Positions 22,261 through 27,199 of a stretch of 40,000 bases of DNA are shown here, piece by piece. The translations under genes were made by a program, and so were the position numbers. The notes under the pieces were generated by a model. The model made no database searches and was not told the origin of the DNA. It saw only the letters and a list, made by a program, of their open reading frames with translations. Each line of letters starts with the position of its first letter. Positions within the stretch are counted from its first letter, which is position 1. The stretch is from Bacteroides faecium (GTDB taxonomy: Bacteria > Bacteroidota > Bacteroidia > Bacteroidales > Bacteroidaceae), in contig NZ_CP050831.1 in NCBI RefSeq assembly GCF_012113595.1, forward strand, positions 4,173,504-4,213,503, read 5' to 3'.

Positions 22261-23109
22261 TCAGGCTTTATAAACAAACTTCACCTCTGCCCAACGGTTC
22301 TTCTCTTTGTAATGAACGTAAGTCAATCCGTTCTTTTCCGCTTCCTCACGAATAACTGTAATGTCATCTACATAGAATCCGCTCATATACAATTCAGACC
22401 CCGGATGCATACAGGCAACATAGTGTTTCATGTCATTCAACAGAATATTCCGGTTGATATTGGCAATAATAACATCAAACGGACCTTTCCCGGTAAGGGA
22501 CGAAGCGTCTCCTTGAAAAACGGCAATATCATCTACATGATTCAGTTCAATGTTTTCGATAGAGTTTCGCACACACCATTCGTCAATGTCGATAGCCGTA
22601 CACGGACGCGCACCTCTCATTCGTGCAAGGATGGCGAGAATTGAAGTGCCGCACCCCATATCGAGCAGAGATTTATCTTTCAACTCGCTATCCAGCAGTT
22701 CCTCAATGATAAGGCTTGTTGTTTCGTGATGTCCTGTTCCGAAAGCCATTTGCGGGTTAATGACAATATCATATTCCGCTTTAGGTACGTCCTGATGGAA
22801 AGTGCTGTGAATCACACAACGGTCACCAATGATAATCGGCTGGAAGAAATTCTTTTCCCATTCCTCGTTCCAGTCCTTGTCTTCCGCTTCTGCATAGGTA
22901 AATGTGATTTCCGTATCGGGCAGGGGGAACTCGGTGATTGCAATCTTAATAGCGGTTTCGTCATATAATGATTGTTGGATATAGGCGGTCAACCCGCTTT
23001 CACATTCAACAAAACTCTCGAATCCTACTTCGCCGAGCACGGCAGCCAGTACGTCATTAACTGTTTCAGTGCAAGGATTGGTATGGAATGTGAACTCAAA
23101 ATACTTCAT
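22261..23109 (-). CDS. prmA: Ribosomal protein L11 methyltransferase
   Basis: 282-aa ORF. PrmA N-terminal domain (MKYFEFTF...), INPQMAFGTGHHETT, and the SAM-binding motif LLDMGCGTSILAI. Confidence 0.9.
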   Translation of the reverse strand: MKYFEFTFHTNPCTETVNDVLAAVLGEVGFESFVECESGLTAYIQQSLYDETAIKIAITEFPLPDTEITFTYAEAEDKDWNEEWEKNFFQPIIIGDRCVIHSTFHQDVPKAEYDIVINPQMAFGTGHHETTSLIIEELLDSELKDKSLLDMGCGTSILAILARMRGARPCTAIDIDEWCVRNSIENIELNHVDDIAVFQGDASSLTGKGPFDVIIANINRNILLNDMKHYVACMHPGSELYMSGFYVDDITVIREEAEKNGLTYVHYKEKNRWAEVKFVYKA

Positions 23110-23139
23110 GGTTGTTTTCTTTTTCTAATAAATAATGTG

Positions 23140-23147
23140 CAAAGATA
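23140..23147 (-). promoter_or_regulatory. -7 promoter box TATCTTTG for prmA
   Basis: The minus strand reads TATCTTTG, 31 nt upstream of ATG 23109. Confidence 0.5.
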
Positions 23148-23213
23148 GTTAGAAATAGGGATTTCCCTATTATCCTTTGGGGAAAATCTCCCCCGGACGA
23201 AAAATCTCTTCCT

Positions 23214-23221
23214 TATCTTTG
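23214..23221 (+). promoter_or_regulatory. -7 promoter box TATCTTTG for the low-complexity protein operon
   Basis: Exact TAnnTTTG match 42 nt upstream of ATG 23263. Confidence 0.5.
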
Positions 23222-23262
23222 TAACGTGAATAAGTTTAAGTAATTACATAAACCGAGATGAT

Positions 23263-24582
23263 ATGAAAAAGATTGTTTACTTCTTGCTATTTGCCTTGTG
23301 CCTCCCGATAGGCTTGATGGCACAAAGCGTTGATGACGACCTTTACTTCGTACCTTCCAAAGACAAACAGGAGAAAAAAGAAACTCCAGTCCGGAAGGAA
23401 CCGAAGAAACAGGTGACCAACATCTATACTTCACCGGGTACTACCGTAGTTGTTCAGGACCGCAAGGGCAGAACACGGGACGTAGATGAATATAACCGCC
23501 GTTACGATGCACGTGAAAATGAATTCGTAATGGATAATGATACCTTATACATAAAAGAAAAATCTAATCCGGATTTGGACGGAGAATGGGTGACCGGCGA
23601 ATTCAATGGTACGCAAGACGACTATGAATACGCAGAACGTATCATCCGTTTCCGCAATCCGCGTTTCGCAATCAGCATCAGCAGCCCGCTCTACTGGGAC
23701 GTAGTTTACGGACCGAACTCCTGGGACTGGAACGTATATACCGACGGTATGTATGCTTACGCATTCCCGACGTTCAGTAACCCGATGTGGTGGGACTGGC
23801 GCTATGGTTCTTATGGCTGGGGTTGGAACTATGGTTGGGGATGGAATCGTCCTTACTATTCTTGGGGTTACTCTCCGGGTTACTGGGGCGGCGGCTACTG
23901 GGGTGGCTGGTATGGTGGCGGTGGCTACTGGGGACATCATCATCATTGGCACGGTGGTCCTAGCTGGGGCTGGGGCGGCGGTGGAAACCATTGGGCACGC
24001 AACACCTATACGAATCGTCGTTCTTATGGCTACAATAATTTCTCTTCTTCACGGAGAAGTGGATCATATTCAGACCGTAGATCGGCAATCGGTACAGATC
24101 GCCGTAGTTCTTCAAGCTCTTATACCGGTAGAACTGTTGGAACAAGACGTGAAGCAACCCGCGTCAGTACCGGACGTACTGGGGTAACTACCCGCAGTGA
24201 CGCTTCTTCTACTCGTAGAAGTAGTAACTACACACGTCCAAGCAGTACGCGTAGCTCCTCAACTTACAATAGTAATCGTGAAGGTTCCGTTCGTCGTAGT
24301 GCTTCGTCTCCTTCACGGTCATCATCTTCTTCTTCATCATACGGAACTACAAGAAGGTCTTCTTCTACTTACAATAGAGGGACTTCAACCAGCAGTCCGT
24401 CTACTAGAAGCAGTAGTAGAAGCTCTAGCCGTTCATACGATAGTGGTAGCCGTTCTTCTTCTCGTAGCAGCTATTCACCAAGTAGCAGTAGTAGCTCTCG
24501 TTCCAGTGGCAGCTATTCAGGTGGTGGTTCTTCACGCTCAAGTGGCGGTGGAGGCGGTTCTAGCAGAAGCGGAAGAAGATAA
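23263..24582 (+). CDS. Secreted low-complexity protein: structured N-region, W/G/Y-rich block with an HHHH run, long S/R/T-rich tail
   Basis: 439-aa ORF with signal peptide MKKIVYFLLFALCLPIGLMAQ. The middle block is WGWNYGWGWNRPYYSWGYSPGYWGGGYWGGWYGGGGYWGHHHHWHGGPSWGWGGGG. About 190 aa at the C-terminus are dominated by S, R and T, ending GGGGGSSRSGRR. It is taken as coding because of the frame length, the promoter box and the tight coupling to the next gene. Confidence 0.7.
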   Translation: MKKIVYFLLFALCLPIGLMAQSVDDDLYFVPSKDKQEKKETPVRKEPKKQVTNIYTSPGTTVVVQDRKGRTRDVDEYNRRYDARENEFVMDNDTLYIKEKSNPDLDGEWVTGEFNGTQDDYEYAERIIRFRNPRFAISISSPLYWDVVYGPNSWDWNVYTDGMYAYAFPTFSNPMWWDWRYGSYGWGWNYGWGWNRPYYSWGYSPGYWGGGYWGGWYGGGGYWGHHHHWHGGPSWGWGGGGNHWARNTYTNRRSYGYNNFSSSRRSGSYSDRRSAIGTDRRSSSSSYTGRTVGTRREATRVSTGRTGVTTRSDASSTRRSSNYTRPSSTRSSSTYNSNREGSVRRSASSPSRSSSSSSSYGTTRRSSSTYNRGTSTSSPSTRSSSRSSSRSYDSGSRSSSRSSYSPSSSSSSRSSGSYSGGGSSRSSGGGGGSSRSGRR

Positions 24583-24621
24583 TCAATACTATATATTAAC
24601 TCTGTAATATAAGACAACGTT

Positions 24622-26277
24622 ATGAAAAAGATAATCGCAGTTGCTTGCGCCTTGTGTTTTGTCGCAGGTGTCAGTGCACAGACAATATATGATGCAGCGA
24701 AGTTGGCAGAGCGAGACTTGAATGGAACCGCCCGTTTTGTAGGTATGGGCGGGGCGATGGGCGCTTTGGGTGGTGATATTTCTACGATGGGGACTAACCC
24801 TGCCGGTATCGGTATTTATCGTAGTAATGACATCATGACCTCTTTCAGCTATTCTGCTTACGGTACGGAGAGCAAATACTTGGGACAGACTTTTAATAAT
24901 GATAAGAACCAATGGTCGTTTGATAACATAGGCTTTGTGTTCGCTTCCAAAATAGGAAATCAGACGGCATTGCGTTATGTGAACTTTGGCTTTAACTATA
25001 AGCGCACCAAGTCTTTCTATAAGAATATGACAATGGGCGGATTGATGGGAGCCGTAGATGATAAGATTTTTGTATCTCAGGTTAATCAGATGGGGCAACA
25101 GGCTACAGACGTTGTATCATATGATAGAGAGAACTATGATTTTGGTAATTCTGACGCTTATAATAATAATCGACTTGGTTGGTTGGGAATTATGGGATAC
25201 CAAGGTTATCTGACAAATTCAGTCCGGGATGATAATGGTTATGATAGATACGTTCCTGTAGTCCCAGATGAGGCTGAAGCTTATTTCAACTCCAATGAAA
25301 AAGGGGGAATCAGTCAGTATGACTTTAATGTCGCGCTAAATGTGAACGATCGTGTTTATTTAGGATTAACGATTGGTGCATACGATGTGAATTATAAGAA
25401 AACCACTCTATATGATGAAGATTATGGAAATGGTGAAGGTTATGAATTGGCTTCATTCAATCGTATTAAAGGATCGGGAGTAGATGTGAAGTTTGGTGCA
25501 ATTTTCCGTCCGTTTGAGTCTTCTCCTTTCCGCATTGGTTTTGCGATACATACACCTGCATTTTATAATTTGACATACGAGAATGGTGCAAGTATGACCT
25601 CGGATGTTTACTTGAAAGAAGTACAAGATGACAATAAGACATTTTATGTACGTGACGATAAGCCTGGTAAAGATGCTATTACAACCAGAAAGTCTTTTGA
25701 TGCAAATGATGGAAGAAGGATAGAACAGGATTTCCGCCTGTCTACTCCGTGGAGATTTAATGCGAGTTTGGGTTATACGGTTGGCACTTCTTTAGCATTG
25801 GGAGCCGAGTATGAATATGAAGATTATTCATCTATGAAATTCAGTTATCCTGAAGGAGATGAAATGGTAGATCAGAATAGTACGATTAAAGACTTCATGA
25901 AAGGTGTACATACATTCCGTATCGGTGCTGAGTATAAAGTAATACCTGAGTTTGCCTTCCGTTTAGGTTATAATTACAGTACTACTGCTTTTAAAGAAGA
26001 TGATGCTTATAAGTGGATACCGGCTAATTCTACTTTGACAGATACAGACTTTGCAAATTCCCAGTCGCATAGTAATTATACAATCGGAATAGGATATCGT
26101 GGAAAGGCCTTTTATGCTGATTTAGCTTATCAATATTCTATGTATAAAGAGAAGTTCTACCCATTTTATAATGACTTGGAAACTTCACCGGGAGTTTGGG
26201 AAATAGTAACTCCGCAAGCAACCAAAGTAACCAATACACGTAGTCAAGTACTATTAACATTAGGTTTACGCTTCTAA
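24622..26277 (+). CDS. Outer-membrane beta-barrel protein, FadL/TodX-like
   Basis: 551-aa ORF with signal peptide ...AGVSAQ. The N-terminal GTARFVGMGGAMGALGGDISTMGTNPAGIG resembles the FadL-family hatch region. Alternating aromatic and beta-strand patterns run throughout, and the protein ends in a C-terminal aromatic residue (LTLGLRF). It starts 39 nt after the previous gene. Confidence 0.7.
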   Translation: MKKIIAVACALCFVAGVSAQTIYDAAKLAERDLNGTARFVGMGGAMGALGGDISTMGTNPAGIGIYRSNDIMTSFSYSAYGTESKYLGQTFNNDKNQWSFDNIGFVFASKIGNQTALRYVNFGFNYKRTKSFYKNMTMGGLMGAVDDKIFVSQVNQMGQQATDVVSYDRENYDFGNSDAYNNNRLGWLGIMGYQGYLTNSVRDDNGYDRYVPVVPDEAEAYFNSNEKGGISQYDFNVALNVNDRVYLGLTIGAYDVNYKKTTLYDEDYGNGEGYELASFNRIKGSGVDVKFGAIFRPFESSPFRIGFAIHTPAFYNLTYENGASMTSDVYLKEVQDDNKTFYVRDDKPGKDAITTRKSFDANDGRRIEQDFRLSTPWRFNASLGYTVGTSLALGAEYEYEDYSSMKFSYPEGDEMVDQNSTIKDFMKGVHTFRIGAEYKVIPEFAFRLGYNYSTTAFKEDDAYKWIPANSTLTDTDFANSQSHSNYTIGIGYRGKAFYADLAYQYSMYKEKFYPFYNDLETSPGVWEIVTPQATKVTNTRSQVLLTLGLRF

Positions 26278-26322
26278 TCTAACAAAGACAGTTTTCAATT
26301 TCTATAATAACTTTTGTGTGTG

Positions 26323-26369
26323 AAAAATCCCAGGAATGCTGAGTGTCTACAGCGGTTCCGGGGATTTTT
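26323..26369. terminator. Bidirectional terminator-like hairpin between convergent genes
   Basis: aaaaatcccaggaa / 19-nt loop / ttccggggattttt: a 14-bp stem with one mismatch. The A-run on the left and the T-run on the right give U-tracts for both strands. Confidence 0.6.
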
Positions 26370-26395
26370 ATTAGTATCACTTTTAATTTTTTGTT

Positions 26396-27199
26396 TTATC
26401 TGCGCAATGGAGTCCGTTCGTCAATAATACCACGACCTCTGTAAAGGCTGATGGCAATAGGAGTATCGGGAGTTAACTCGATATCCTTATCCACGATAAT
26501 AGGCTCTTCCTTATCATCTACGATAACCGTTCCTATCGTCTCGCCGGCCTTAATCCGTTGTGGGAGCAGGTTAGTCAGGATACCTTCCGATATTTTCCGG
26601 ATGTTAATGTATTCAGGTTTTGCATCCTTGTCTGCTTCGATTTTACCATTGAACAGGTCTTGTACACCTTTATTCTTCAGGAAAAGCTTAACGATTGCAT
26701 TACCTTCATACGGTTGTCTCTTCTCATCAAGCAGGATAACGGGCACCGTCATTCGCTTGAATTTAAGAGCAACGTTCCAGGAACCTTTGGCAGCTTGTGT
26801 CATTCCGAACAAAAACTCTTTACCACCTGTAATACCACGATAACGGCTACCGAACGAACGTGTAGCAACATCATCGGACAATTCGGGATAATGAGCATAA
26901 AAAGTAACAGCTTCCGCATCCGTATCTATCACATCCCAGGCTGGGTTCTCCATACCTATGGTAAACGGTAGATAATCCTGCTCGGAAGCAGACATCGAGA
27001 TGATATCTCCATCCGAGAAACTACTTTTTGCAGGAAGAGAAAGAGTGCTGCTACTACGTGTAAGAGCATCAGTGATACTTTCATTGTCGATAGAAGCAGA
27101 AAAGCTGAAAGCTTTCTTGCTGGGTTCTTGTTGTTCATCTTGTTGCTGACAACTAAACAGGCATGATGCCGCTAAAAAAAAGAGAAGGTTTTTCTTCAT
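26396..27199 (-). CDS. Fimbrillin-family-like lipoprotein (hypothetical)
   Basis: 267-aa ORF with lipobox AASCLFSC-QQQD. The N-terminal pattern FSFSASIDN...TRSS...F.DGD.I and the LFG motif resemble Bacteroidales FimA/Mfa-type fimbrillin-like proteins. The family call is tentative. Confidence 0.55.
   Translation of the reverse strand: MKKNLLFFLAASCLFSCQQQDEQQEPSKKAFSFSASIDNESITDALTRSSSTLSLPAKSSFSDGDIISMSASEQDYLPFTIGMENPAWDVIDTDAEAVTFYAHYPELSDDVATRSFGSRYRGITGGKEFLFGMTQAAKGSWNVALKFKRMTVPVILLDEKRQPYEGNAIVKLFLKNKGVQDLFNGKIEADKDAKPEYINIRKISEGILTNLLPQRIKAGETIGTVIVDDKEEPIIVDKDIELTPDTPIAISLYRGRGIIDERTPLRR

Follow-up and report, generated by a model that had tools for sequence, protein, structure and literature searches.

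What does an outer-membrane barrel want with a partner made largely of glycine, aromatic residues, serine and arginine? The question is raised by two adjacent genes in a 40,000-nucleotide (nt) stretch of the Bacteroides faecium genome (assembly GCF_012113595.1, contig NZ_CP050831.1, positions 4,173,504 to 4,213,503; below, the window, in whose coordinates positions are given). Gene A (23263-24582, + strand) encodes a secreted protein of 439 amino acids (aa), nearly all of it predicted to be disordered; gene B (24622-26277, + strand) encodes a 551-aa outer-membrane barrel. An earlier note, made from the sequence alone, had singled out these two genes as a pair separated by 39 nt, and the list of open reading frames (ORFs) confirms it. 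A and B are inherited together, in the same order, throughout the phylum Bacteroidota, and very probably constitute a real, co-functional pair of barrel and partner with A in the periplasm. As for what this pair is as a whole, the best explanation, to which we give about an even chance, is a dedicated outer-membrane unit consisting of the FadL-type barrel B and a partner, A, on its periplasmic side.

The layout of A is readily described. A signal peptide (residues 1-20, 23263-23322, + strand), read from the sequence, ends at a signal peptidase I-type cleavage site between LMA and Q, and the Ala-Gln junction is kept across the alignment of A homologs. Cys13 is not a lipobox cysteine, because Ser or Ala replaces it in some homologs; by sequence and alignment, the window's A bears a signal peptidase I-type signal without a lipobox. 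There follows an acidic head (residues 21-183, 23323-23811, + strand; net charge -7), delimited by composition and conserved columns, and then an aromatic/glycine block with an HHHH run (residues 184-246, 23812-24000, + strand), in which G accounts for 23 of 63 residues, W for 13, Y for 9 and H for 6. The remainder is a tail of Ser, Arg, Thr and Gly (residues 247-439, 24001-24579, + strand) with a C-terminal GRR: its 193 aa include 76 S, 35 R, 21 T and 21 G and no lysine, for a net charge of +29. All six serine codons are used in the tail, where Tandem Repeats Finder detects no array; the program reports only two small ones in gene A (18 bp x 1.9 and 15 bp x 3.5), each within the aromatic block. 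The normal signal peptide, the aromatic-glycine block, the S/R/T tail of about 190 aa, its mixed serine codons and its freedom from clean tandem repeats had all been noticed before and stand as described. The same cannot be said of a region of about 170 aa that the earlier note had taken to be ordinary-looking: it has no confident fold. The AlphaFold2 model of A, built on a 31-sequence alignment, has a mean predicted local distance difference test score (pLDDT) of 42; only residues from about 130 to 170 reach 62-73, and everything from residue 179 on lies below 50. A is predicted to be almost wholly disordered, head included.

Is A, then, a protein at all? Its low-complexity DNA keeps several overlapping frames open (23545-23991, -; 23753-24187, +; 24197-24607, +), and it belongs to no database family: Pfam, NCBIfam and the PDB hold no match to A, Pfam has none to six distant homologs, and the more than 1,000 homologs are every one named "hypothetical protein". 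On these grounds one might suppose that A is not translated into anything real, or that A and B are mere neighbors without a joint function. That supposition is close to refuted. The long overlapping frames exist because the composition of A is biased. Measured against four close relatives (synonymous divergence, dS, of 0.16-0.45), the ratio of nonsynonymous to synonymous change (dN/dS) in the frame as read comes to 0.01-0.05 for the head, 0.00-0.07 for the block and 0.02-0.06 for the tail. The reading frame of A is under strong purifying selection throughout, tail included. With dN/dS at 0.00-0.07 in all zones, the composition of A must be held by selection on the protein, as the earlier note had surmised from the look of the DNA, and homologs keep that composition. 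Conservation also extends to the signal peptide, to the N-terminal motif and to the RR at the C-terminus; gene order is kept across the phylum; and a probable A ortholog (below) has been seen by mass spectrometry. A is present in single copy in its own genome, as is B.

Over longer distances A keeps its composition and not its sequence. The span of 60 aa richest in W, Y, F and H contains 40-62% of these residues in 55 Bacteroides-type A proteins and 32-67% in 38 distant homologs. The tail is net positive in all 55 and in all 38, with arginine as its cation: the median K/(K+R) is 0 in the Bacteroides type and 0.094 in the distant set, compared with 0.60 for the other genes of the window. The C-terminal RR is found in 55/55 of the former and in 17/38 of the latter. 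Islands of sequence are conserved within this low-complexity protein: DD-x-Y-[YF] just past the signal peptide, DVDEYNRR, Y-T-R-P-S and a C-terminal GG..RR. The first of these is the top-conserved stretch of the family. In the window it reads D-D-D-L-Y-F (residues 24-29, 23332-23349, + strand) and begins three residues past the mature N-terminal Gln; D25, D26 and Y28 are invariant in the homolog alignment, and most distant homologs carry a version of it, DD[IVL]Y[YF]. The short conserved motifs of the head also include the longer DVDEYNRRY and YEYAERIIRFRNP. A D-T-L at residues 93-95 (23539-23547), with D93 and T94 at least 90% conserved, fits the general O-glycosylation sequon of the Bacteroidetes, D-(S/T)-(A/I/L/V/M/T); the predicted site is consistent with an exported protein. 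How the tail changes can be glimpsed at intermediate distances. In the closest relatives it is as constrained as the head; between Bacteroides species (the window's A against loci L040 and L078) the heads are nearly identical (dN 0.02) and the tails drastically different, at dN ~0.6 with 25-35 gap columns, a distance at which the alignments are unreliable. It would seem that the tail changes in jumps and retains its composition as it does so. Many members of the B. fragilis A cluster are only ~200-219 aa long, which suggests that the low-complexity tail is a frequent breaking point of assemblies or gene calls. UniRef at times names Flavobacterium A-type proteins "Vitellogenin II" or "Prolyl-tRNA synthetase", and B-type barrels are sometimes named "TonB-dependent receptor" in public clusters (P0021, P0121, P0241, P0317 and P0393 are the clusters concerned).

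The strict partnership of the two genes is the second pillar of the argument. A pattern search of reference genomes returned 80 loci, all from Bacteroides or Mediterranea, the closest being those of Bacteroides sp. f07 and B. congonensis (B identity 94-95%); every one with a readable upstream gene shares the A-B architecture of the window. Among sampled Bacteroidales, B is present in 148 of 151 genomes and A is detectable by sequence in 39, in about 35 of which it lies directly 5' of B on the same strand. Inspection of 20 Bacteroidales genomes without a detectable A turned up an A-type ORF 5' of B in all 19 that have upstream DNA. These ORFs, of 360-556 aa, have a signal peptide or a lipobox, DD-x-Y-Y, a body rich in S, G, Y, R and N, and a basic C-terminus that ends in RR in most. 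The same holds in other orders and classes of Bacteroidota, where an A-type ORF precedes B at 19 of 20 loci, Flavobacterium loci L111 and L113 among those that hold the pair. For the distant loci combined, the count is 38 of 39. The exception (L116, G184:C1:1180418-1184360) has as its nearest upstream ORF one of 92 aa that is rich in K, D, E and A. The earlier note had proposed synteny across the Bacteroidales as a check: the pairing holds there and well beyond, and failure of the two genes to be conserved together is ruled out.

The pair has no third member. A divergent prmA gene (22261-23109, - strand) adjoins A in 64 of the 80 Bacteroides or Mediterranea loci and in 1 of 40 distant loci; its position thus reflects synteny at the level of the genus and is not part of the module. 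A conserved third gene was accordingly rejected, PrmA being kept only near the genus and the downstream gene not being conserved.

The arrangement of signals around A and B is that of an operon. A pattern scan places a Bacteroides-type -7 promoter box, TATCTTTG, at 23214-23221 (+ strand), 42 nt 5' of the start of A; no other TAnnTTTG occurs on the + strand from 22900 to 26400. Of 55 Bacteroides-type loci, 52 have a box of this type no more than 150 nt 5' of A, against a chance expectation of 0.08 per locus, and none has one in the A-B gap. The gap itself (24583-24621, + strand) is 39 nt long, close to the median of 35 nt for the 55 loci, and contains neither promoter box nor terminator; that B has no promoter box of its own had been stated before and agrees with these counts. 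Past B, between it and a convergent gene (26396-27199), a hairpin terminator followed by a run of T lies at 26323-26369; the hairpin has a folding energy of -23.3 kcal/mol and a z-score of -3.7, and 0 of 200 shuffled sequences fold as well. Rfam has no match in or around the operon. A and B are probably co-transcribed from the one box to the one terminator.

What kind of barrel is B? The Pfam family Toluene_X (PF03349) scores 28.4 bits by hmmscan on the protein, 29.6 bits in a scan of the genome and 30.3 bits when neighboring stretches are included, straddling the cut-off of 29.7; a precomputed match to PF03349 is found on some close homologs of B and is absent from others. Structure prediction is less equivocal. 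The AlphaFold2 model of B, made with 37 diverse homologs, has a pLDDT of 81.6 and a predicted template-modeling score (pTM) of 0.81, and Foldseek matches it to FadL, TodX, TbuX and three solved BamG chains at E ~1e-14 and target-normalized template-modeling (TM) scores of 0.57-0.70. Other barrels match far worse. In its solved members, the FadL fold comprises 14 strands with an N-terminal hatch inside. By its model, B has the FadL fold with such a hatch. The alignment locates the mature N-terminus and hatch at residues 20-69 (24679-24828, + strand), with an NPA motif at 24796-24804. The hatch segment, residues 36-69, is the most conserved part of B: all 37 homologs have it at exactly 34 residues, R38, G50, D52, N59 and P60 never vary, and conservation of A61 is 90% or more. 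The FadL-like N-terminal segment that the earlier note had quoted is present, and the structure prediction that it had proposed for B has yielded a FadL fold.

B is nonetheless neither BamG, nor PorV/PorQ, nor plain FadL: it is a branch of the FadL superfamily separate from all three. The genome of B. faecium holds four FadL-superfamily genes, B and three others. One is its own BamG (423 aa, about 3299047-3300318 of the genome; 1e-229 to BamG chain 9hiv_F and 1e-38 to 9n2d_B, the F. johnsoniae "Bam G"). Another is a BamG2-like paralog (401 aa, about 6436445-6437650; 8e-38 to 9hiv_F); a 439-aa ORF lies just upstream of this gene on the same strand and overlaps its start by 14 nt. The third is a PorV/PorQ-family protein (323 aa, about 4613400-4614263; 208.5 bits). 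Type IX secretion is commonly regarded as missing from Bacteroides; this PorV/PorQ-family gene is present despite that supposed lack. The total of four agrees with the remark that B. thetaiotaomicron has four FadL paralogs (PMC12578637); a search for other FadL paralogs in the supplement to the B. thetaiotaomicron BAM paper found none. PorV and PorQ, of the type IX secretion system, resemble B in being FadL-superfamily barrels of Bacteroidota, and they bind other proteins; B, however, matches PorV_fam (NF033709) only weakly, since the cut-off is 90 bits and B scores 28.4 as a protein and 17.9 in the scan of the genome, and the true family member is the gene elsewhere in the genome. That B is PorV/PorQ was rejected on these scores.

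Canonical FadL, TodX and TbuX share with B the fold, the N-terminal hatch and the NPA motif. The profile of the B family matches TbuX at 1.5e-11 and a Pseudomonas FadL homolog at 6e-10, ahead of PorV at 2.8e-5. B differs in its borderline Pfam score, in being 100-130 residues longer and in having an A-type partner, which canonical FadL has not. One genome, G231, bears on this point: it holds a canonical FadL (410 aa, 179 bits), flanked by unrelated genes and without an A-type neighbor, in addition to a B ortholog with different neighbors. B must therefore be a separate branch, the only one to which an A partner belongs; the identification of B as a plain FadL was rejected. Just 26 nt downstream of the canonical FadL of G231 (L125, G231:C1:3388432-3392631) there is a gene for a 433-aa lipoprotein whose sequence, by eye, resembles a GDSL/SGNH hydrolase; it may represent a different, perhaps lipid-related, pairing of FadL with a lipoprotein.

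The likeness to BamG invites a more specific proposal: that B is a BamG-like subunit sitting on BamA and A its counterpart of BamH, the two serving a subset of clients as an alternative accessory pair of the barrel assembly machinery (BAM). The best target-normalized TM score of the B model, 0.70, is to B. thetaiotaomicron BamG (9hiv_F), and B has remote profile homology to the BamG of its own genome (probability 91%, 21% identity). BamG2 and BamH2 are likewise encoded as an operon pair (PMC12578637), and BamG, a FadL-type barrel, grips the N-terminal tail of its partner BamH (PMC12611786), so that a FadL-fold barrel with a dedicated partner protein is not without precedent. Yet phmmer finds no match to B in the PDB at E <= 0.01, BamG chains 9hiv_F, 9hjm_F and 9n2d_B included, where the genome's own BamG scores 1e-229, and the B family profile matches no BamG chain at E <= 1. 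B belongs to another branch, in a genome that already has a BamG and a BamG2-like gene, and its identification with BamG was rejected. The partners differ as well: BamH is a folded, surface-exposed lipoprotein, while A is disordered, devoid of a surface-export signal and predicted to face the periplasm. In our reading, the two reports on BAM purifications (PMC12611786, PMC12578637) name no FadL-type subunit besides BamG and no lipoprotein that is disordered. We consider a role in BAM very improbable.

The location of A is best approached through its relatives. In lineages other than Bacteroides and its near relatives, A is as a rule a lipoprotein. A rule of thumb for surface export of lipoproteins calls for at least two acidic residues in the six positions after the lipobox cysteine (PMC12578637); this is found in 0 of 24 lipoprotein-type A proteins. 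In 17 of the same 24, DD-x-Y-Y lies at +10 to +13 from the lipid-bearing cysteine, a fixed spacing that suggests a contact made at a set distance from the membrane. The A of Bacteroides has no lipid anchor and, if it is at the outer membrane, must be held there by something else, for which B is the obvious candidate.

Only one probable sighting of the pair in the literature has come to hand, and it is a passing mention. Flavobacterium johnsoniae Fjoh_4941 (A5FA29) is described as a "likely FadL homolog", a FadL/TodX barrel, and the adjoining Fjoh_4940 (A5FA28) as a signal peptidase II-processed (SPII) "periplasm-facing lipoprotein, function unknown"; mass spectrometry finds the two in the membrane proteome, depletion of the lipid-linked TamL raises Fjoh_4941 5.6-fold and Fjoh_4940 2.6-fold, and the authors remark that their proximity "might indicate a functional link" (PMC12045153). 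A lipoprotein without recognizable domains directly beside a barrel annotated as FadL/TodX is just what A and B are in most lineages, and in a sampled Flavobacterium genome the B ortholog is the only Toluene_X match. Fjoh_4940 and Fjoh_4941 are probably the orthologs of A and B. Look-ups in protein clusters and a Flavobacterium search returned "hypothetical protein" as the only name, and led neither to a B. thetaiotaomicron locus tag nor to a direct link by sequence with Fjoh_4940. In comparison with Fjoh_4940, the A of Bacteroides has lost the lipid anchor and gained ~100 residues of head. The earlier note knew of no described function for the pair, and this stands: A matches nothing in Pfam, NCBIfam or the PDB, and the literature offers only the mention just cited.

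These facts bear directly on the proposal, raised in outline in the earlier note, that A is a substrate carried or threaded through B to form a surface coat, an amyloid-like fiber or a polyanion-binding layer. An exported or threaded substrate has to be unfolded, as A is, and the aromatic/glycine-rich and arginine-rich sequences of A are of the sticky kind. Barrel-threading lipoproteins are known: the RcsF lipoprotein of Enterobacteria threads through OmpA, OmpC and OmpF, and like A it is a lipoprotein with a disordered, positively charged segment in complex with a barrel. (RcsF differs from A in lacking any sequence kinship with it, in having a folded signaling domain and in using general porins instead of a dedicated, co-encoded barrel; threading of A is hypothetical.) The hold of FadL-type BamG on the N-terminal tail of BamH can be cited to the same effect (PMC12611786). 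The difficulty is that B has the FadL fold and that its barrel is filled by a hatch of invariant length. We know of no FadL-family member that passes polypeptides. B resembles neither CsgG nor FapF, being grouped by Foldseek with FadL-type barrels only, and A, with its two very short arrays confined to the block and a tail without repeats, does not resemble curli CsgA or Fap substrates with their imperfect amyloid repeats. The surface-export signal is missing from all 24 lipoprotein-type A proteins, and Fjoh_4940, the probable ortholog, is listed as facing the periplasm (PMC12045153). An amyloid-type export channel and a surface coat both fare badly against this evidence, and export of A is on the whole improbable.

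We return to the dedicated outer-membrane unit with A on the periplasmic side, for which the following picture can be drawn. In most lineages the lipid anchor would keep A at the periplasmic surface of the outer membrane; in Bacteroides, where the anchor has been lost, only docking of the conserved DD-x-Y-Y motif on B could do so. From there the aromatic block and the polycationic tail of ~190 residues would hang into the periplasm. B is expected to be a working FadL-type conduit because the invariant hatch and the NPA motif are kept; as in other FadL channels, a molecule of hydrophobic or amphipathic character would move by way of its wall or its hatch. At the periplasmic exit, A might serve as acceptor, or as the link to anionic material of the envelope. 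That the probable F. johnsoniae pair responds to TamL depletion is a weak pointer to lipid homeostasis at the outer membrane, and a function of the pair in handling outer-membrane lipids or hydrophobic molecules is a possibility that we advance only tentatively.

Several considerations weigh against this picture. Contact between A and B is hypothetical, the two structure models being of the single proteins; the sequence names no substrate; and a Ser/Arg tail is no obvious binder of lipid. The acidic-residue rule for lipoprotein orientation is a rule of thumb and does not apply to the anchor-less A of Bacteroides. The identification of Fjoh_4940 and Fjoh_4941 with A and B, which fits the Flavobacterium data, is no more than probable, and their rise upon TamL depletion could be a general response to envelope stress.

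A different view takes A to be mainly a structural tether or periplasmic gel, a flexible spacer, or cushion, between the outer membrane and the cell wall for which B is a mere anchor: the arginine-only tail would stick to peptidoglycan or other anionic material of the periplasm and the aromatic block would associate with itself. To our knowledge, the Bacteroidota lack Braun's lipoprotein. A tail of charge +29 without lysine, with ~190-210 disordered residues conserved in composition and not in sequence, would suit such a device, as would a block that is 40-62% aromatic, a lipid anchor in most lineages with a motif at fixed distance from it, and the increase of the probable ortholog Fjoh_4940 under outer-membrane stress. 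But a lipid anchor alone would be enough for a tether, which gives no reason for so strict a pairing with a FadL-type barrel; the invariant hatch and NPA motif of B fit a working channel better than a passive anchor; and Pfam scans find no peptidoglycan-binding domain in A. We regard a tether as unlikely.

A bolder reading of A starts from the resemblance of its block of 40-60% aromatic residues and its arginine-only, Ser/Gly-rich tail to the low-complexity domains of eukaryotic phase-separating proteins. A could be a periplasmic "sticker-and-spacer" protein, anchored by B, that forms a condensate or gel layer beneath the outer membrane, or that is threaded through B, and in either form organizes or senses the envelope. 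The odds are decidedly against it; if true, it would be a mode of envelope organization or sensing not yet described for bacteria.

Whatever A does, the module deserves attention. The Bacteroidota are dominant commensals of the human gut and important oral and animal pathogens, with an outer membrane built unlike that of E. coli. Barrel B is also found in most other Bacteroidia, with its partner A at nearly every inspected locus; despite this spread, the pair is missing from current accounts of the Bacteroidota envelope. Its probable F. johnsoniae version is expressed as protein and responds to the loss of a lipid-transport factor. A is itself an unusual case, a phylum-wide bacterial protein under strong selection with almost no predicted fold. 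Genetic tools exist for B. thetaiotaomicron and for F. johnsoniae, which makes the question directly testable.

Two smaller observations may be added. A loop of B at 25981-26049 (residues 454-476) is 22-37 residues long in Bacteroides and near relatives, where A comes with a signal peptidase I-type signal, and 5-11 residues long with lipoprotein-type A and in more distant lineages; each group is likely to be a single clade, so that this correlation is probably not independent evidence. The other is a likeness between the two proteins themselves. The consensus of the A motif, D-D-[IVL]-Y-[YF]-S, resembles that of the mature N-terminus of B, Q-x-x-x-D-A-[LI]-R-[YF]-S (loci L082-L121), and both stand just past the signal peptide (23332-23349 in A, 24679-24720 in B); the window's version in B has diverged to Q-T-I-Y-D-A-A-K-L-A. 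The resemblance is short and may be due to chance or to mimicry, by A, of the tip of the B hatch. In the latter event, A, through a sequence such as D-D-I-Y-Y-S in place of the D-A-L-R-Y-S of B, could compete with the hatch tip and so gate the channel.

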